From IMG/VR virus record IMGVR_UViG_3300014835_000095: DNA of 64,000 bases; one strand, given 5' to 3'. The notes under the pieces are model-generated. The model did not search any database and was not told the DNA's origin. It saw only the letters and a list, made by a program, of their open reading frames with translations. Of the stretch, positions 5,186 through 43,262 are shown in pieces. Origin of the DNA: a virus. A program made the translations under genes and the position numbers. Each line of letters starts with the position of its first letter. Position 1 is the first letter of the stretch.

Positions 5186-5398
5186 ATTTATTACTTAATA
5201 ACATTCCCAGGAAAGTCATAGTTTAAATTAGCTCTCAAATGCTTTATTCAAAAATTATCCAGTGTGCTGGTGCCAAATCGTACTCATCTTCAGAATAGTC
5301 ATTAAAATCATCCATTACTTCTTGTTCATAAAATTCTTTAGAGTCGTCTATTTGAATGTCATAATACATGGTGGCCTCAAGTTGTTTATATAGTGGTT

Positions 5399-5426
5399 AT
5401 TATAAGCCATCCTTGGCAGTTGTCAA
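5399..5426 (-). promoter_or_regulatory. Sigma70-type early promoter
   Basis: TTGACA-16-TATAAT; spacer contains GCCAAGGATGG. Confidence 0.7.
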
Positions 5427-5482
5427 TGTATATAGATATCTAGTCAATATGCCTACACTCAAAGACTTTTAAATATTCAAGA

Positions 5483-5704
5483 TCAATTGTGAGTTTCATT
5501 ACACAACTCCTTCCCTAATGCTCGTTCTTTTCTTTTGAAATACAGTCTAGTTTTATTTCTGTTTTCTGTCGACCTAGTGTATGATTTATATTCACCACTT
5601 TTAGTTTTTAAGCGACCAGTACTAGATTTCAATCCATATTGTCGGATATCAGCTTTATCTGGACATTCAATATCTTTGTCTCTAGGTAATCCATAAGGTT
5701 TCAT
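5483..5704 (-). CDS. Small basic hypothetical protein
   Basis: ORF track. Confidence 0.6.
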   Translation of the reverse strand: MKPYGLPRDKDIECPDKADIRQYGLKSSTGRLKTKSGEYKSYTRSTENRNKTRLYFKRKERALGKELCNETHN

Positions 5705-5913
5705 ATTAATTAGTCTCTAATCTTTTTTTTTAATTTGATACAATAGAAAGTATGTAATGGTTAATTATCGTTCTTTTCTTTTGAAATACAGTATAGTTTC
5801 ATTTCTACTTTCCGACGACCTAGTGTGCCATTATATACACTCATTTCTATACCAATTTTAAAAAATATTACATTTATTATTCAAACAACATTATTGATTA
5901 ATAATAACATTAT

Positions 5914-9613: not shown

Positions 9614-9970
9614 TTAAATAACTAATCTCTTTACGGCACGAACATAGCTCGCACTATTCTTATCATAGTAGTTCTGGAAGCCATTGAAGAAATACTGACC
9701 CCAAGCGTCGGTAGCAGAAAACTCAGCACTAGACCAATAGTAAGTCGCAATAAATTCTCTTCTAATATCTTCATTCATGTATGCTTCTAAAAGAATATTT
9801 CTAGGCGGCAATTCACCTCCGACAGTTTGGCACCATTCAATTGCAGCATCCCAGTCTAGTTCTTCATCGGCTTCTGGACCAAGCAGCCATTTAGTTCCAT
9901 TTAACTCACATATAACTGGGGCATTTTTCCAATCGTAAGGTTGATTTGTTAAAGCATCAATTTTAGTCAT
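9614..9970 (-). CDS. DUF1566/CLec-fold protein, candidate DGR target
   Basis: W..A...C...GG.LP, YWSS..F..AW...F..G..K..VRAV; paralog of 40500..40877. Confidence 0.85.
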   Translation of the reverse strand: MTKIDALTNQPYDWKNAPVICELNGTKWLLGPEADEELDWDAAIEWCQTVGGELPPRNILLEAYMNEDIRREFIATYYWSSAEFSATDAWGQYFFNGFQNYYDKNSASYVRAVKRLVI

Positions 9971-34683: not shown

Positions 34684-35280
34684 CTAAAATACAAAATCTG
34701 AAGTATCACGCTTTTCCTTCTTATTAGAAGTATAAGACATAGGTGGTGCTTTCTGTGGATCTGCAATACCAACCTGTGAACTATTTTCTGTATCAAATAC
34801 TCTCATTTTGTTCCTATCTATACCCACAACAAATTTATTATAATAATTAACATCGGCATATCTGTTTTTCAACTGTTTTATCATGATCTGTCCGAGTTCT
34901 TCTAACTCTGGGGTAGATATTAATCCTAACATTAAGTCGCAAGTTTGGGGGAGACCTATTGAATTTTTAGTTAGAATATCGTTACAATAAAAAAGGTTAT
35001 CACCTGTTACCGAAATATCAATAGTTTGCAAAGTACCCACATCTTCTATAGACATAATTTCATCATTATAATCTATAAGCTTATCAGACAATTCTGATTT
35101 TAATTGACGTTCTTCTTCTATAGTAAATAACAAATCTGTCAGTTCAAATAATTCTATTTCATTGGTTTGATGGATATAACCTTTTTCTTTTAAATAAATT
35201 GCTTTTTTAAAACACTTTTCATACAAAGATGGATCTTGCTCATAATTTGGTTGATTCATATTGTTCCTATGATTTAGCAT
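34684..35280 (-). CDS. 41: gp41 helicase C-fragment with split-intein C half
   Basis: ...NLFYCNDILTKN|SIGLPQTCD...KQLKNRY; likely start M8 (35259) behind AGGA. Confidence 0.92.
   Translation of the reverse strand: MLNHRNNMNQPNYEQDPSLYEKCFKKAIYLKEKGYIHQTNEIELFELTDLLFTIEEERQLKSELSDKLIDYNDEIMSIEDVGTLQTIDISVTGDNLFYCNDILTKNSIGLPQTCDLMLGLISTPELEELGQIMIKQLKNRYADVNYYNKFVVGIDRNKMRVFDTENSSQVGIADPQKAPPMSYTSNKKEKRDTSDFVF
34963..35259 (-). mobile_element. Split intein C half with extended N-terminus (gp41)
   Basis: DEIMSIEDVG..TIDISV...FYCNDILTKN; Ser at +1. Confidence 0.85.
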
Positions 35281-37058
35281 GATTTTAATAAATCCCCAAC
35301 GGACAAATCCATATTGACAGATTTTCTACCTGTATTAGATGGAAATACATGATCTTTAGATACAATAATAGTTTTACCACTTTTTAAAGTGATCTTTACA
35401 CATTCTTTAGGTTTTTCATGATGCACAAACATGACAGTTTTAAACACATCATTGGCGGTAATCTGATCCCCCGGAACAATATCACCAATTCTTTTGAGAG
35501 TACCATCTAATAATTTAACTTGTTCTCCCACCCAAATACATTCAGATGTGCTAGTCAGATCTAGATCTGACGAATTAATTGATTCACGATTTGCCTGGGT
35601 AGCGGAAACTATAGGTACATTATTTTCAACCGCCAATCCTCTCAATTCTTCTGCTATAGATTTGATATAAGAGTAACTATTGACACCTGCCCCAAATTTC
35701 ATTCTTTGAGATGAACAGATATTAAGGTAATCAATATAAATAACATCAGGTATAAAATCTTTCTTAATTTTCAACTCTTCTATTAGTGCTCTAAAATGCC
35801 CAGCATGAGCTCCTGATGTTGGGTATTCTTTAACAATCAAAGTTCCGGTGGTTTTCTTTTTCAATTTTTGAATGCGACTATTAAAAATGTCATATTCAAC
35901 TGTTTTAAGTTCATGCATACCCAAATTTAATAAATTAGCATCTATACGCTCTGCAATGCGCTCCTCGCTCATCTCCATAGTTATATAAAGCACATTTTTA
36001 TTATTAGAAATATTAGCAGAAGCCATATGGCACATAACTAAACTTTTTCCAACACCAGTATTATGGGAGCTGACACTATTGGTATAATATCTGTGATTGT
36101 CATGATCCACTTGAATATCAACAATAGGAATTAGTTTTCCCGTTTTTCTAACATTACCATGTATTAATATTCCACCTTTAGTTAAATATAGTTGATTTGG
36201 GATATTTATTAAATCTTTAGCATATTGCCAACCTATATCGGTTTCAAATAAGTGATTTTCATTTACTCGGACTTCTACACCAGATTCTAAAATTAAAACA
36301 TATTCATTCCATTCACCCTTATCCACAAATAATAATATAGGCACAAAACCATCAGGTGAATCTACTGTAATTCTATTACCTGATTCTAACAATTCTTTTA
36401 TTTGACCAATACGGATTGTTATTACATGATTTTCATCATTTAATTTTACATATATATTAGTTTCTGGATGCACACATCCCGCTAAAAGTACATTGAGTGA
36501 TTTTTTAGACAACCCACCATTAGTGATTTTATTTAACAGTTCAATATCAAAAGCTAGCTTTTCTTCAGTTTTTCTATAAAATTCAAATCGGTCATTTGCA
36601 TCTGCAATGTAATCGTGACCAACTGAAGAATCAAAAGTGATACCCAATGCCTCTGATAAAATGCTGGGGATAGCTTCTGGCGTATATTGTTTATCTTTAC
36701 CCTCAATGATACCGATGGATGCCAAAATTGCTATATATACAGCTCGTTCTTTTACAAATACTTCAGTTTCACGCAATATCCAATTTTCATTAATATCGGT
36801 CTTATCTAACACAGCAATGAGCTTTTCTGCTTCAATCAATTCATTAGAATTAATATCTCTACGATTGGATACTTGTATTGATAGTATTTCTTTAGTTGCT
36901 GGCTTGTTAAATTCTGCAAAAAACTTTAGTAGTTCTTCTGAAACTATAGCTTCAACTCTATCTGCAAAGTATTCTTTTTTAAGAAATGGTATAACTTTTC
37001 TAGAATACTCTTCGTTATGAATTAAATTAGATAATATTGTTGTTTCTATTCTAGACAT
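35274..37058 (-). CDS. 41: gp41 helicase N-fragment with mini-intein and split-intein N half
   Basis: LLAG|intein|TGVGKS; YIDYLNI; SATQANR; ends in CIWVGEQ...GDLLKSC. Confidence 0.95.
   Translation of the reverse strand: MSRIETTILSNLIHNEEYSRKVIPFLKKEYFADRVEAIVSEELLKFFAEFNKPATKEILSIQVSNRRDINSNELIEAEKLIAVLDKTDINENWILRETEVFVKERAVYIAILASIGIIEGKDKQYTPEAIPSILSEALGITFDSSVGHDYIADANDRFEFYRKTEEKLAFDIELLNKITNGGLSKKSLNVLLAGCVHPETNIYVKLNDENHVITIRIGQIKELLESGNRITVDSPDGFVPILLFVDKGEWNEYVLILESGVEVRVNENHLFETDIGWQYAKDLINIPNQLYLTKGGILIHGNVRKTGKLIPIVDIQVDHDNHRYYTNSVSSHNTGVGKSLVMCHMASANISNNKNVLYITMEMSEERIAERIDANLLNLGMHELKTVEYDIFNSRIQKLKKKTTGTLIVKEYPTSGAHAGHFRALIEELKIKKDFIPDVIYIDYLNICSSQRMKFGAGVNSYSYIKSIAEELRGLAVENNVPIVSATQANRESINSSDLDLTSTSECIWVGEQVKLLDGTLKRIGDIVPGDQITANDVFKTVMFVHHEKPKECVKITLKSGKTIIVSKDHVFPSNTGRKSVNMDLSVGDLLKSC
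35277..35540 (-). mobile_element. Split intein N half, 88 aa (gp41)
   Basis: TSTSE|CIWVGEQV; block B SKDHVFP. Confidence 0.9.
36060..36476 (-). mobile_element. Contiguous mini-intein, 139 aa, in gp41 Walker A
   Basis: AG|CVHPET...NENHLF...SVSSHN|TGVGK; no endonuclease domain. Confidence 0.93.
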
Positions 37059-37342
37059 TATATTCCACCGTAAAATATAGTATTTTTATTTTTTACAGAA
37101 TCTTCAATAACTTCTACTAAAATGTCTCCAATAATTATTCTAAATGCTTCTAGATTTTCTACAATACCGACATGTAAGGTATATTCAAATGATAAAATCG
37201 GTTCATCTTCATATGGGAATTCAACTTTCCCATATGAATAAACCACACCAGAAAGATCACCAGATGTTAATTCAAAAGCAATGATTTTTTCGCCTGTCTT
37301 ATCAATATAATCTATAACTTCATATAACATATAATTCTCCAA
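37058..37342 (-). CDS. Hypothetical protein at the gp40 position
   Basis: Synteny between uvsX and 41. Confidence 0.55.
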   Translation of the reverse strand: MENYMLYEVIDYIDKTGEKIIAFELTSGDLSGVVYSYGKVEFPYEDEPILSFEYTLHVGIVENLEAFRIIIGDILVEVIEDSVKNKNTIFYGGI

Positions 37343-38537: not shown

Positions 38538-39470
38538 TTAAAAAAACGAATCTAAATTTGATATTTCTTCTAGATTCCAGCCAATTGGCTCAATAATTCC
38601 TCCTAGCGCATCCAAGAACACTTTTTCAAATTGAAAATCCCAGTCTACATATTTGTGCAATCCAAATTCTGGTGGTAGAACGGATGGAAAAGCAATAACA
38701 TTTTCTTTAATTGTATTGGGTTTCTTTAAATATATGAATTTAATCTTATCGCCAGAATTGATCGGTTGATACTTATTAGTAAGACATAGCTCTGTTATTA
38801 GATGGTTATATAATAGAGCACCTCTAACGTGTATGGGGCACCCTTTGGAGTAAATTGTAGCATTGCTCTGGTATTTCTCCATACCGTTAACACCGCGTGG
38901 AAATGCAATATCTTCAACTGGTATTTTTTTAAATTCTTCTCTAGCATCATCAATAAATGCAATTAGATCTGGATTCGTCTTATCAAAAATAACATCAATA
39001 GAAGATTTCAATTTATCTCTAATAACTGCGGGGGTGGATGATTTTACAATTTCCAACCCCATGATTTTATACTTGGGTTGGTCATATTGCACACCTTCAG
39101 AATTGTGGACTCTTAGTATGTATCGCTTTTTCACTGCTGGAAACAGTCCTTTGGAGCATAAGACCTCTCGCTTCATAGACATAAGCTGTTGATATGATTG
39201 CAGATAATCTGCCAATTCCTCATAAGACTTTTTGATGAATGGTGTTAATATTTTTTCACTAAAGGTATCCATAAAGGCAATCTTTTCATCCACAGACTTA
39301 TCTTTTTGTGTAGATTCTATTAAATTCTCTAATGTCAAATACACAGAATTGTGAACACATATATCATTGCCAAAGAAATTGTGAGTATCTTCTACCTCAA
39401 TATCATAAACAAACTGTTCTTGGATGCCCAAATCTGTAACCTCAAATACATCACTAAATTCTAAATTCAT
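38538..39470 (-). CDS. 43: gp43 DNA polymerase fragment 3 (41-aa IntC plus palm/thumb)
   Basis: YDIEV..HNFFGNDICVHN|SVYL; KKRYIL; KIMGLE; CPIHVRGAL. Confidence 0.95.
   Translation of the reverse strand: MNLEFSDVFEVTDLGIQEQFVYDIEVEDTHNFFGNDICVHNSVYLTLENLIESTQKDKSVDEKIAFMDTFSEKILTPFIKKSYEELADYLQSYQQLMSMKREVLCSKGLFPAVKKRYILRVHNSEGVQYDQPKYKIMGLEIVKSSTPAVIRDKLKSSIDVIFDKTNPDLIAFIDDAREEFKKIPVEDIAFPRGVNGMEKYQSNATIYSKGCPIHVRGALLYNHLITELCLTNKYQPINSGDKIKFIYLKKPNTIKENVIAFPSVLPPEFGLHKYVDWDFQFEKVFLDALGGIIEPIGWNLEEISNLDSFF
39348..39470 (-). mobile_element. Split intein C half (gp43)
   Basis: Blocks F/G ending VHN; Ser at +1. Confidence 0.9.
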
Positions 39471-39527
39471 ATAATATCCTATATAGGTATAGCTACTTTT
39501 GATTTTAAGTCAAAAGTAGCTATAAAA

Positions 39528-39713
39528 TTATTTCATCTCATTAAGAACTAAATCCATTCCCACAATTCTAGCAAAAACAAAAGCATCCTTTCTAGAATTA
39601 AAACTGGCACTAACAATCTCTTCACCAATTAGATTGACAATATGGTATTGGAGTTTTTGATTAACCAGACACATTGATAAAATACCAGATGGTACTGCAT
39701 TAAAATTATACAT
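39528..39713 (-). CDS. Hypothetical protein between intein halves
   Basis: ORF track. Confidence 0.45.
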   Translation of the reverse strand: MYNFNAVPSGILSMCLVNQKLQYHIVNLIGEEIVSASFNSRKDAFVFARIVGMDLVLNEMK

Positions 39714-39727
39714 CTTAATCTCTCTAT

Positions 39728-39958
39728 TCAGATTAACTTATGCTTTGAGCCATCTTGACAAATAACTGATATATGATTTGTACTTGGTCCAGACATATTG
39801 ATAATCGTGACATTTGACGTACCACCACCATTTTCACATTCTTTGTTAATAGCTTGTGAAATGACATTTACTTCATACGGATTGAGCGATAATACTTGAA
39901 TAAGAGATGTTATAATTACTATAGATGTTAATGCAAATGCTAATAATATTGTTTTCAT
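39728..39958 (-). CDS. Small exported/membrane protein between intein halves
   Basis: Signal-like N-terminus; two Cys. Confidence 0.6.
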   Translation of the reverse strand: MKTILLAFALTSIVIITSLIQVLSLNPYEVNVISQAINKECENGGGTSNVTIINMSGPSTNHISVICQDGSKHKLI

Positions 39959-40434
39959 TTAGTGCCCATTTTGAGTAAGGTATTGATAGAAACCATAAAC
40001 ACATTATTGGTTAATTCTGGATCCATTCTTACACCTTCAGCGATTTTAATAGATAAAATAATAGATGTTTTATAAGAAGGGTTATACAAATTTACCGCCA
40101 AATTGAATTCTTTATTGTACATAATTTTAGAAAAATGACTATAAACAGATTTGATGGGTAAATTATCATAAGGTTTAAAACCAACCCGACTTAATTTTGT
40201 GTTAATATCTGTGGTATCTTCCAAAAAGATATTCTGTTGGAATTGCAATACCTCTAATTCCAACATTTTAATAATCACATCACCATGATCTAAATTTCTC
40301 ATAGTCCAAATTTTAATAAATCTATTTTTTTCAAAATGGTTATTAATAGAAGTAAATATTCTCAAAGGGGACATATTGTTGACTTGTGTTGAAATTATTT
40401 TTTTAGTCATTGCATTGATAGAAAATGTATTCAT
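39955..40434 (-). CDS. Hypothetical protein between intein halves
   Basis: ORF track; behind a promoter at about 40471-40499. Confidence 0.6.
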   Translation of the reverse strand: MNTFSINAMTKKIISTQVNNMSPLRIFTSINNHFEKNRFIKIWTMRNLDHGDVIIKMLELEVLQFQQNIFLEDTTDINTKLSRVGFKPYDNLPIKSVYSHFSKIMYNKEFNLAVNLYNPSYKTSIILSIKIAEGVRMDPELTNNVFMVSINTLLKMGTK

Positions 40435-40499
40435 GTTTATTGTCTCTATGTGATTAAAGTAAATAGAATTGTATTGTCATCCTCAGCTCAAGTCAATAA

Positions 40500-40877
40500 T
40501 TAAATGTCTAATCCCCTGACGGCACGAACAAAGTACGCAATAGTCTTATTGTGGCCGCTCTGGGCGCCATTGCGGAAATTCTGGTACCAAGCATTGGTAG
40601 CAGTAAACTCCGTACTAGACCAGTAATTGGCCGCAGTGAATTCCTTTCTAATTTCATTATTCAGGTATGCTTCCGAAAGAATATTTCTTGGTGGTAGTTC
40701 ACCTCCGACAGTTTGACACCATTCAATTGCAGCATCCCAATCCACCATTTCTGGTGCTTCTGGCCCCAATATCCACCGGTATCCATTTAATTCGCAGATA
40801 ACTGGAGCAGTAGCCCAATCATATGATTGATTTGTTAAAGCATCAATTTGTTGTTGTATTTGTTCACATTTAGTCAT
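40500..40877 (-). CDS. DUF1566/CLec-fold protein, candidate DGR target (paralog 2)
   Basis: YWSSTEF..AW..F..G..K..VRAV; high identity to 9614..9970. Confidence 0.85.
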   Translation of the reverse strand: MTKCEQIQQQIDALTNQSYDWATAPVICELNGYRWILGPEAPEMVDWDAAIEWCQTVGGELPPRNILSEAYLNNEIRKEFTAANYWSSTEFTATNAWYQNFRNGAQSGHNKTIAYFVRAVRGLDI

Positions 40878-40950
40878 AATATTTCTCTTTAAGAGTTAAG
40901 GTAAGCATCAATTGTACTACCATCCTTGGCTAAGGTCAACTATTTTAACA

Positions 40951-41640
40951 TCATTGTGGAAAATTCTTACTATCAACTCCCACTAGATCATTTATTGATA
41001 TGAGACAATGTATTTTGGAATCTAATAATCCAGGCTTAATTGATTCTATCTCACATGTAAGTTTATTCTGCACTATAACAGAGTGATCTTCTGTTACAAT
41101 AACCTCTTTACCCTGGGTTTTTATTGAAAACATTCGCTTATTGACTTTATGTTTCATCACATATTTAATATTAGAATCTACCAATTCACTATCGGCATTT
41201 ACAGAATTTGTTTTACCGTGAGATAATTTAACCATATTATCATGATCATTCTTTATAAAGAAGTCAGGCATTGAATCATAATAATCAGATATAGAAATTT
41301 TATTTCCATTTACTGTAATAATAGTGCTACCGATGACTGAATCGGTATCTGAAGCAATCACGTAATCTTTATTTTTAGTTTTGAGTGCTAGATTAAGATA
41401 ATTATTTAATTTATTAGCAATCCACCTAATCGCTAATTGACCTGTTGTAGTGATAGATTCAGCCATCCTTAGATCATAATATCTAAAATGTGTGCTGCCC
41501 AAAATGCCATAGCAAGAATTAAGTGCGATTTTTTTCCCCATTTGAAGATTGTCGAGTCTAGAAATCTCTTTTACTAAAAACACCTTGTGTTTAAGTAAAT
41601 CATCATCGGACATCATTTGTATATCAAGACCCATAATCAT
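40951..41640 (-). CDS. 43: gp43 DNA polymerase fragment 2 (motif B plus IntN)
   Basis: KIALNSCYG, ITTTGQ, ASDTD|SVIGST. Confidence 0.95.
   Translation of the reverse strand: MIMGLDIQMMSDDDLLKHKVFLVKEISRLDNLQMGKKIALNSCYGILGSTHFRYYDLRMAESITTTGQLAIRWIANKLNNYLNLALKTKNKDYVIASDTDSVIGSTIITVNGNKISISDYYDSMPDFFIKNDHDNMVKLSHGKTNSVNADSELVDSNIKYVMKHKVNKRMFSIKTQGKEVIVTEDHSVIVQNKLTCEIESIKPGLLDSKIHCLISINDLVGVDSKNFPQ
40954..41340 (-). mobile_element. Split intein N half, 129 aa, Ser1 (gp43)
   Basis: SVIGSTII; block B VTEDHSV; inserted in the DTD|S motif. Confidence 0.9.
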
Positions 41641-43262
41641 AATCCTCGTTTTTTAATTTCATTCTTAACTAGCTCGTATTCTTGTTCACATTTTAGCATC
41701 TGCTTTTTATCAACTGTACGACTTACATATAATGTCTCCATCAATTCTGGAAGAAACCCTTGTTTGTCTTTTCTGTAGCACCAACCGTTTGCAGTAATTG
41801 ATAGATCTGTTTTAGGTAAAGGATCTTTATTTAATAACGTATCTAAAGTGATATTTAACTTAGTTGTTGAAATAGTTTCGGGACTTATGTTGCATTGTCT
41901 GATTAAAGATGGGTAGAGTGATGCCAAATCAAACGATGCTACCCATTGATGCATACCTGCCAGGGGTTCTTTTACATATGCACCTATGAATTGCTCACCT
42001 TTCTGTTGATGTTTGCTATTAGGGATAACAATATGTTTTTTAAGTAAATTATTATATATGATAGAATCCCACAATTTAACTGGACTTAGAGCATCATTAT
42101 AATTCAATTTCCCCATGTATGCCATCGTCAAATGTAAATTTATCAGCTTTAATTTATCGTCAAGTTTAGTAATAAGTTCAACATCCATTCTATTATATAA
42201 AGTATATTCATTCCATGCTGATTGTCTTAGTGATTTATCTAACTCCTCATATTCTCCCATTCGTACAGAATCTAAATATGGGATATCTTTTTTAAGTTGT
42301 GTTCTCCTAAATCCGAGTTTATTGTGGTCTGTTGGGTTCTCGCCAAGATCTAATACATCATAAACACCTGTACAATATTCTCTAAAAGTAGTTCCGTGGG
42401 TGTGTTCTAATTTGGATTCCCCTAATTCTATAGCACCAATATTGCCTAAGCTATAACTTTCTCTATTTTTATAAGTATATTTTTTATAAAGGACTAGGTA
42501 ATCTAATGAACTAATGCCTATAATTTTATACATCTGTTCTTCTTTGCCTTGGACGTTGATATTCTGCTCATCAACAAAACCCCAAGGAGACAATCTCTTA
42601 TAAGCATCTCCTAACACATGTTTGATTCTATTTACAATGTATGGAATATCAAATGTGTCACTATTATATCCAACAACAATATCCGGATAATCATATTGCC
42701 AAAATAGTAAAAATTTATTTAATAACTCTTTTTCATCTACACATTGCACATAATCTTCTTGATATTTTCCTGTATAAGGTCTAGATCCAAATGTTGTTAT
42801 TTTATTAGATGTTTTATCTTGTAGAGTAATAAGAACAATTTCATCCCTAGCAAATTTGGGATCAGGAAAAACACCAGATTCTGATACTAAAAGTTCTATG
42901 TCTAATGTTAGGATTTTAATCAAATCAGAATCATATAATACATCGTCTTTGTAGTTTTCAGAAATATATTGTAGGGCATAATTAGATTGTCCAAAGATAT
43001 TGAAATCTTGAACACCTTCATAGGTTTTAATAAAAGCTTTTGCATCATCAATTCCCCCAGGTTTGATTGGATATGCTGGTATATCATCTAAGGTCCTCCA
43101 TGGAGTTTCTGTATTTGGAGTTTTTTGGTTAGTTGTAAATAGTGTGGGCTTAAATGGTATTTTAGATCTTTGCGGTTGACCGTTTACTATTTCACGCACT
43201 AGGAGGTTATCCCCCCGTCGAATTACCGATGTGTAGAAATTCTTTGACATTGTATTCTCCAA
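41637..43262 (-). CDS. 43: gp43 DNA polymerase fragment 1 (N-terminal, 3'-5' exonuclease, motif A)
   Basis: LDIE, YNSDTFDIPY, YNRMDV, SFDLASLYPS; ends in the fingers helix. Confidence 0.95.
   Translation of the reverse strand: MENTMSKNFYTSVIRRGDNLLVREIVNGQPQRSKIPFKPTLFTTNQKTPNTETPWRTLDDIPAYPIKPGGIDDAKAFIKTYEGVQDFNIFGQSNYALQYISENYKDDVLYDSDLIKILTLDIELLVSESGVFPDPKFARDEIVLITLQDKTSNKITTFGSRPYTGKYQEDYVQCVDEKELLNKFLLFWQYDYPDIVVGYNSDTFDIPYIVNRIKHVLGDAYKRLSPWGFVDEQNINVQGKEEQMYKIIGISSLDYLVLYKKYTYKNRESYSLGNIGAIELGESKLEHTHGTTFREYCTGVYDVLDLGENPTDHNKLGFRRTQLKKDIPYLDSVRMGEYEELDKSLRQSAWNEYTLYNRMDVELITKLDDKLKLINLHLTMAYMGKLNYNDALSPVKLWDSIIYNNLLKKHIVIPNSKHQQKGEQFIGAYVKEPLAGMHQWVASFDLASLYPSLIRQCNISPETISTTKLNITLDTLLNKDPLPKTDLSITANGWCYRKDKQGFLPELMETLYVSRTVDKKQMLKCEQEYELVKNEIKKRGL

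Follow-up and report, generated by a model that had tools for sequence, protein, structure and literature searches.

When gp43, the replicative DNA polymerase of T4-related phages, is divided between open reading frames (ORFs), these lie 2 bp to 3 kb apart (PMC3061061). The gp43A and gp43B products of Aeromonas phage 25 co-purify and are active (PMC2988022), and a Pfu polymerase with an AUGA-coupled split at the fingertip behaves like the wild type (PMC3061061). A break of another kind is known from the gp43 of T4-like Aeromonas salmonicida phages, which carries the naturally split, cysteine-less Aes123 PolB1 intein (PDB 9HTH), with fragments of 120 and 39 amino acids that trans-splice at a rate described as ultra-fast (PMC11923092). 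The Vsr-like endonuclease family found beside such intein halves in relatives of the phage studied here was first described by Dassa et al. in 2009 (PMC2677866). Here we analyze the gp43 locus at positions 38538–43262 of the IMG/VR virus record IMGVR_UViG_3300014835_000095, a stretch of 64,000 nucleotides referred to below as the window, in which gp43 is broken both at the fingertip and by a split intein.

This three-piece layout is already known. An earlier sequence-only reading of the window had implied that it was novel, but the GenBank annotations of phages Aes508 and PTm1 show the same fingertip split together with a split intein, and three metagenomic lineages, L003, L085 and L081 (22 contigs), are also three-piece. 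New in the window are an intein gap that carries cargo and no endonuclease, and a target of a diversity-generating retroelement (DGR) inside that gap.

Gene layout of the polymerase locus

The window derives from a T4-like myovirus of freshwater or lake metagenome origin with a low guanine-plus-cytosine (GC) content of 30.9%. The minus strand carries its replication genes, and gp43 is spread over three minus-strand ORFs, every part of which was located by ORF, Pfam and T4/RB69 alignment at the coordinates that the sequence-only reading had given. The first ORF, gp43A (41637–43262, minus strand), encodes the N-terminal domain, the 3'-5' exonuclease, palm motif A (DLASLYPS) and the first finger helix. 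It aligns with residues 2–503 of RB69 gp43 (E = 7.5e-69), ends near RB69 residue 508, and matches the Pfam families DNA_pol_B_exo1 (1e-23) and DNA_pol_B (7.5e-16). Its probable start is the ATG at 43250, a correction to the listed ORF start that gives a protein of 537 amino acids ending in NEIKKRGL.

The second ORF, gp43B-1 with the N-intein (40951–41640, minus strand), is composed of an extein in residues 1–100, corresponding approximately to RB69 residues 524–623, and the N-intein in residues 101–229. The extein (41341–41640) provides the second finger helix with motif B (KIALNSCYG) and the palm up to motif C (DTD); it matches T4 gp43 residues 550–623 and RB69 residues 555–630 with E values of 1e-17 to 4e-20, and both the KxxxNSxYG and the DTD motifs are present. 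The third ORF (38538–39470, minus strand) starts with a C-intein of 41 residues ending in HN, and from Ser42 onward it is polymerase. This part, gp43B-2 (38538–39347), begins with Ser+1, supplies the remaining palm, the thumb and the C-terminal tail, and matches T4 gp43 residues ~620–897 (E = 1.6e-32) and RB69 residues 624–892. With exonuclease and polymerase motifs and homology to T4 and RB69 gp43 at E values down to 7.5e-69, the protein belongs to the family B polymerases, and all of its polymerase and intein motifs are intact. A 259-nt contig matching the third ORF in one metatranscriptome run was considered as RNA evidence and set aside, as such a contig cannot show transcription.

We consider it highly probable that the window phage, a freshwater T4-like phage, genuinely encodes its replicative polymerase gp43 in three cistrons and that the following account explains the locus best. 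The gp43A and gp43B-1 proteins would be translated separately, through termination and re-initiation at the fingertip break. The N-intein of gp43B-1 and the C-intein preceding gp43B-2 would then associate and trans-splice at DTD/S, giving a gp43B of about 367–369 amino acids, equal in size to the gp43B of two-piece relatives, which would pair non-covalently with gp43A into a heterodimer like that of Aeromonas phage 25. Both breaks would be scars of mobile elements: in relatives, the fingertip site holds a free-standing GIY-YIG or HNH endonuclease, and the intein halves normally flank a free-standing Vsr-like endonuclease. Both endonucleases would have been lost in the lineage of the window phage, leaving the intein gap as an ordinary intergenic slot for promoter-flanked passenger cassettes, one of them a remote target of the phage's DGR.

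The intein gap

The gap between the intein halves spans 39471–40950 (1,480 nt) and contains four same-strand ORFs of 125, 159, 76 and 61 amino acids. Neither Pfam nor PHROGs identified a homing endonuclease in it, and tblastn searches with the endonucleases of L002, L042 and Aes508 found no remnant of a Vsr-like or Seg-like endonuclease (E ≥ 0.14), in agreement with the sequence-only reading, which had described about 1.5 kb with four ORFs and no recognizable homing endonuclease. Among the intein-bearing loci that could be inspected (Aes508, PTm1, L002, L003, L042, L081, L085, L117 and the window), only the window phage has a gap of this size with four ORFs and no endonuclease remnant. The gap elsewhere harbors a Vsr/DUF559-like endonuclease (Aes508, PTm1, L002, L042 and L085), those of L002, L042 and Aes508 being mutually 36–39% identical, or consists only of a spacer of 23–104 nt (L003, L081 and L117). 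A survey of relatives for different cargo at this site, as the sequence-only reading had proposed, returned endonucleases and short spacers, with cargo in the window phage only. In this phage, the cargo is retained in at least three strains. Apparent read joints in X5 (for example, from 38675 to 41338) were considered as a cargo-free form and rejected; they are short, low-likeness patches contributed by the polymerase of another organism.

ORF125 as a target of a diversity-generating retroelement

The ORF of 125 amino acids (ORF125; 40500–40877, minus strand) encodes a small DUF1566/Lcl_C (C-type-lectin-like) protein, whose match to Pfam Lcl_C (2.9e-7) is below the family cut-off, with a variable region at 40509–40637. 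Comparison of the window with the strain represented by L001 and L088 revealed 30 substitutions within 114 nt (40521–40634) against about five in the other 7.4 kb, the two strains being 99.9% identical elsewhere. The invariant codons of the variable segment are identical between the strains even at synonymous sites. Gene conversion from a paralog at 9.6 kb was considered as the source of the second allele and rejected; agreement with the paralog is limited to 6 of the 30 sites, which speaks against a recombination patch.

A search with the pattern of invariant positions in the variable region identified IMG/VR contigs with a canonical DGR cassette. On L092 and L173, the cassette is composed of a 696-amino acid Lcl_C target, bAvd (2e-13), an asparagine-rich template repeat and an RVT_1 reverse transcriptase (1.9e-17). 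All 14 mismatches between the variable region of the window and this template repeat fall at template adenines, for which the chance is about 3e-7 by our arithmetic, given 44 adenines in the 129 nt of the repeat. The cassette's own target differs from the repeat at ten positions, again all adenines. The 3' flank of ORF125 is common to this cognate target and is not found at the template repeat, and the cognate target is encoded beside a tail assembly chaperone gene. The assignment of ORF125 as a DGR target, made as a candidate in the sequence-only reading, is thus strongly supported by the adenine-specific mismatches, the cassette and the turnover of the variable region between strains.

Inside the window, a sensitive blastn search for a template repeat or reverse transcriptase returned only the paralog at 9614–9970. 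The identical cassette on L173 comes from the same ENA sample as L089, a contig 100% identical to the window, and a variant cassette, L094, shares its JGI sample with the second ORF125 allele. Cassette and phage co-occur at similar contig depth in ERZ27298307 and JGI 3300047277, not joined on one contig, and contigs resembling the template repeat have a depth comparable to that of the phage in two runs. On the basis of this co-occurrence and similar depth, the cassette is likely to reside in the same genome as ORF125. Logan contig ends near ORF125 seemed to hint at within-sample variation and were set aside, as contigs cannot show such variation.

Origin of the cargo and the remaining passenger genes

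ORF125 and the sequences on both of its sides are homologous to the second copy at 9614–9970, which encodes 118 amino acids, shares 78% nucleotide identity with ORF125 over the last 221 nt and is flanked by similar promoter-like elements. The variable region of this paralog differs from the template repeat at 17 adenine and 12 non-adenine positions, and the paralog may have been a target in the past or may be served by a different repeat. The flanking elements look promoter-like (TTGAC..AGGATG..TAcAAT). A sigma-70-like element at 40911–40939 (TTGACC-17-TACAAT, minus strand) ends 34 nt before the start of ORF125, and a second at 40468–40496 (TTGACT-17-TACAAT, minus strand) ends 34 nt before the start of the 159-amino acid ORF (ORF159). 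The latter has its homologue in the element that lies downstream of the paralog (9614), and the element upstream of the paralog (~9.97 kb) is weakly similar (TTGACT-17-GATAAT). The sequence-only reading had given the four passenger genes their own promoters; this agrees with the elements before ORF125 and ORF159 and does not extend to the two smaller ORFs, as only two elements exist.

By analogy, the arrival of the cargo probably resembles the promoter-mediated cassette shuffling of T4-like phages (promoter early stem-loop, PeSL; PMC4122927). A stem-loop is absent at 40911–40939 and at 40468–40496 and is present only as the hairpin with TTGACT at 39488–39524; because the stem-loop part occurs only before the third gp43 ORF, we do not class the locus as a PeSL. 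This hairpin, of 17–18 bp and 94% complementary, follows directly after the last passenger ORF and lies 18 nt before the start of the third gp43 ORF; it is both terminator-like and PeSL-like, and the TTGACT hexamer is in its loop region.

ORF159 (39955–40434, minus strand) is an orphan, the only match among 5.8 billion proteins being itself, and has no confident fold, with an Atlas model at a predicted local distance difference test (pLDDT) score of 0.38 and no usable Atlas match. It still looks coding, because four of the five listed substitutions in a ~2% diverged strain fall at third codon positions by our count. ORF76 (39728–39958, minus strand) is a small protein with a hydrophobic N-terminus whose start overlaps the ORF159 stop (ATGA), and ORF61 (39528–39713, minus strand), also small, begins 14 nt after ORF76. 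Searches of Pfam and PHROGs returned no family match for either.

Two further readings of the gap were weighed. After loss of the endonuclease, it might serve as a protected, early-transcribed slot within an essential gene that houses a stand-alone hypervariable lectin-fold protein rewritten by the DGR. We regard this as speculative and rather unlikely. If it were true, a lytic T4-like phage would diversify a small early protein rather than a tail fiber, perhaps to bind changing host factors, and the position within gp43 would shield ORF125 from deletion.

The sequence-only reading had suggested that trans-splicing could act as a replication checkpoint and that the insert site is kept as a safe harbor for cargo, taken here to mean a selected slot that protects cargo from deletion. 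The cargo does sit in the gap and is kept across the strains, and a deletion reaching either intein half would presumably inactivate an essential gene. However, the content of the gap in relatives, where cargo is lacking, and the presence of the ORF125 cassette at an ordinary intergenic site at 9.6 kb speak against a harbor maintained by selection. Against the checkpoint, known intein redox switches do not apply to a cysteine-less intein, and the homologous Aes123 intein is reported to be an ultra-fast splicer (PMC11923092). Both ideas are unlikely, and safe harbor fits only in the weak sense that the endonuclease-free intein gap behaves as an ordinary intergenic slot.

Split intein at the catalytic motif

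The N-intein (40951–41340, minus strand; 129 amino acids followed by a stop) begins with Ser1 (SVIGSTII) and carries block B (VTEDHSV). It matches the Aes123 PolB1 intein (9HTH) with an E value of 2.4e-24 and is 51% identical to the N-intein of Aes508. The C-intein (39348–39470, minus strand; 41 amino acids) carries VYDIEVEDTHNFF and NDICVHN and matches 9HTH residues 130–171 (E = 5.9e-10) as well as Pfam Intein_splicing. In a ten-member family alignment, Ser1, the block B T-x-x-H, VYDIEVE..HNFF, the terminal HN and Ser+1 are all kept and there is no catalytic cysteine; the catalytic positions are thereby retained in the window phage and nine relatives at 35–78% identity. Ser1 and Ser+1 are kept in the window, L077, L002, L003, L042, L081, L085 and L117. 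From these features, the element is an Aes123-PolB1-type, cysteine-less, naturally split class 1 intein with Ser1 and Ser+1, as the sequence-only reading had proposed, and it and these relatives would add natural members to a rare cysteine-less split-intein family used in protein engineering.

The insertion site is PolB motif C (DTD/S), and the split lies at the endonuclease position. In intein-free relatives, the residue after DTD is the serine of SVY and the two extein ends abut exactly, indicating that the insertion is precise and that the junction peptide predicted by the sequence-only reading, ASDTDSVYL, is right. We infer trans-splicing as the best explanation for the window phage because the catalytic residues are kept and the closest characterized homologue splices.

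Alternatively, the intein halves may no longer splice and may instead act as a non-covalent clamp in a three-subunit polymerase, in the manner of the Aeh1 NrdA fragments. Splicing in the window phage is a prediction, in vitro splicing by natural split inteins is often poor (PMC11923092), and examples of fragmented enzymes held together by interaction domains of mobile-element origin exist (PMC3045599). We nevertheless hold this quite improbable, since Ser1, the block B Thr and His, the penultimate His, the terminal Asn and Ser+1 are all kept in the window phage and in nine relatives, and Aes123 PolB1 does splice.

Break in the fingers

The fingertip break at 41632–41651 (minus strand) reads AAAAAA CGA GGA TTA TGA TT ATG and comprises an A6 run encoding Lys-Lys, a GAGGA ribosome-binding site, the gp43A stop and one or more possible gp43B-1 starts. 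The probable start, the second ATG (41634), lies 8 nt downstream of GAGGA, so that gp43B-1 would begin 2 nt after the gp43A TGA. The intein-less break of the sequence-only reading is upheld, whereas its overlap at 41637–41640 (ATGA) probably does not hold. The break separates the two finger helices and so lies between motifs A and B (RB69 residues ~508 and ~524). It aligns with the positions at which Aeh1, phage 65 and Aes508 are broken, which bears out the proposed likeness to heterodimeric gp43A/B enzymes.

The letters of the junction are identical in six further contigs (L001, L078–L080, L089 and L090) from JGI, ENA and Logan, namely one IMG/VR contig of the second strain, three Logan contigs and two ENA contigs. 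Reads that fuse the first two fragments had been named as evidence against the sequence-only reading; three runs from three studies, including the ~2% diverged strain, showed no indel at the junction. The break is not an error, because the junction is identical across assemblies of at least three studies and relatives are interrupted at the corresponding position.

The closest different relative, L077 (77% amino acid identity), has a gp43A ending in NELKKRGL, followed in the fingertip gap by a 380-amino acid reverse-strand ORF with NUMOD3 and GIY-YIG-like motifs and then by gp43B-1. In L096 (74%), which is without intein, the ORFs abut at the same break. Spacers of 170 nt in L004 and 860 nt in L005 separate the fingertip ORFs, within a range of 0–860 nt over L096, L004, L005 and L003. 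A break at the aligned position is also present in L003, Aes508, PTm1 and the Aeromonas phage loci L070 and L074. We take the latter two to be phages Aeh1 and 65. About 25 fingertip residues are common to all split forms and absent from unsplit relatives of similar distance (L006, L008, L010 and others). As judged from these alignments, the fingertip break is real and old. It is of the gp43A/B type, and by analogy with phage 25 the subunits would be made separately, associate and be active.

A programmed -1 frameshift or slippage on the A6 run could in principle fuse gp43A to gp43B-1 and leave a two-piece polymerase interrupted by the intein only. A -1 shift on ATT AAA AAA C does lead into the gp43B-1 frame, which is open only from the A6 run onward, with stops immediately upstream, making this the sole place where fusion would work. 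However, T AAA AAA C does not conform to the canonical X XXY YYZ heptamer in our reading, and the A-run is explained by the conserved Lys-Lys that it encodes. At the protein level, the RGL and stop that follow the A-run are conserved in L077, L096, L004, L005 and L003, where different codons encode them. An endonuclease gene or spacer follows the gp43A stop in L077, L004 and L005, and fusion is therefore impossible in those three; in Aeh1, two stops lie in the -1 frame. We judge the frameshift very improbable. That the locus is instead an assembly artefact or a decaying pseudogene, with another polymerase replicating the phage, is extremely improbable: the window does derive from a metagenome, but the same structure recurs in JGI, ENA and Logan contigs and in the runs of three studies, including the ~2% diverged strain, the polymerase and intein motifs are intact, and the isolated phages Aes508 and PTm1 replicate with the same layout.

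Several points nevertheless weigh against the three-cistron account and its DGR component. The A6 run occupies the precise position at which a -1 shift would fuse gp43A and gp43B-1, and a minor fused product is possible. Splicing and heterodimer formation in the window phage are predicted from homology. The reverse transcriptase and template repeat lie outside the window, their link to this genome coming from shared samples and similar depth, and the GC content is 34.5% in the DGR contigs against 30.9% in the window. Finally, the second ORF125 allele (L088/L001, JGI 3300047277) has 9–10 non-adenine mismatches, all in the 5' 50 nt, for which one template repeat does not account; the 3' two-thirds of its variable region depart from the template repeat at adenines alone. 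The 5' changes might come from a second repeat or reflect a mosaic with another variable region.

Neighboring genes and related loci

The gp41 helicase region of the window (34684–37058) has an apparent in-frame mini-intein, with boundaries read by eye as LLAG/C and HN/T, and the helicase ORF ends in a second N-intein (Hint match). The next ORF (34684–35280), overlapping by 7 nt, has a C-intein-like end (ILTKN/S) followed by the helicase C-terminus (PHROG DnaB, 7e-16). With split inteins in both gp43 and the helicase, the window phage is predicted to have at least two trans-spliced replication proteins. Downstream of uvsX, the sequence of the window (37058–37342 and beyond) is replaced in the second strain (L001, 7486–9767) by a 454-amino acid helicase-like ORF and a 305-amino acid DNA-methyltransferase-like ORF (SPPF motif, by eye) in place of ORF94 and gp41; this difference is either a strain-level gene swap or an assembly chimera.

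An intein-less break in L081 (3697–5888) lies about 20 residues after motif A rather than at the fingertip and yet has tail and head peptides of the same type on its two sides (EAEKRGLM before the stop and MSDEEIL after it). By analogy with Aeh1 NrdA, such a peptide pair may travel with a mobile element. Five loci (L016–L018, L026 and L044) have an insertion of about 1 kb near the site of the L081 break. At L002 6600–6639, the N-intein ORF ends in a second copy of GADTDS, which looks like a duplicated target-site remnant beside the Vsr-like endonuclease gene. L003 has an apparent intervening sequence at 5272–5816 inside motif B (NSAL/YGALG), where the gp43B-1 of Aes508 has an annotated group I intron and the window has none.

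Comparison with known systems

Among the closest described loci is that of Aeromonas phage Aes508/Aes123 (JN377894), with the order gp43A, a Seg-like GIY-YIG gene, gp43B-1 with intron and N-intein, a Vsr-like ORF, and gp43B-2 with C-intein. It shares with the window an equivalent fingertip break, the same intein family at DTD/S with Ser1 and Ser+1, and three cistrons on one strand. However, both gaps of Aes508 contain an endonuclease gene and a group I intron interrupts its gp43B-1, whereas the window has neither endonuclease nor intron, its gp43A and gp43B-1 abut, and its intein gap holds four unrelated ORFs. Tenacibaculum phage PTm1 (AP019524) likewise has three pieces with an intein of the same family in the middle fragment, but its fingertip gap holds two hypothetical ORFs and its intein gap a Vsr endonuclease. 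The bicistronic gp43 genes described by Petrov and Karam (phages 25, 44RR, 65 and Aeh1) resemble the window in the break between the finger helices and in similar tail and head peptides, although the Aeh1 and 65 loci encode a two-piece gp43 without intein. The current view of how such polymerases work is unchanged by these findings.

ORF125 resembles remote DUF1566/CLec DGR targets (PMC5758913, PMC4159848) in its adenine-specific differences, its C-terminal DUF1566 variable region and the 3' flank shared with the cognate target. In contrast to those targets, it is a stand-alone protein of 125 amino acids behind an early-type promoter-like element, nested in the split intein of a polymerase, with the reverse transcriptase cassette outside the window. 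A DGR would thus reach a remote target of 125 amino acids located among the replication genes of a T4-like phage.

Finally, the locus is similar to the fractured genes of Dassa et al. 2009 (PMC2677866) in that neighboring ORFs of a phage replication gene, on one strand, carry the two halves of a split intein, but the free-standing endonuclease between the halves that defines those genes is absent. By analogy, it looks like the stage of the fractured-gene model that follows loss of the endonuclease and precedes uncoupling of the halves. The window would then document a stage that this model predicts, with the endonuclease gone, unrelated genes between the halves, and the halves still linked.

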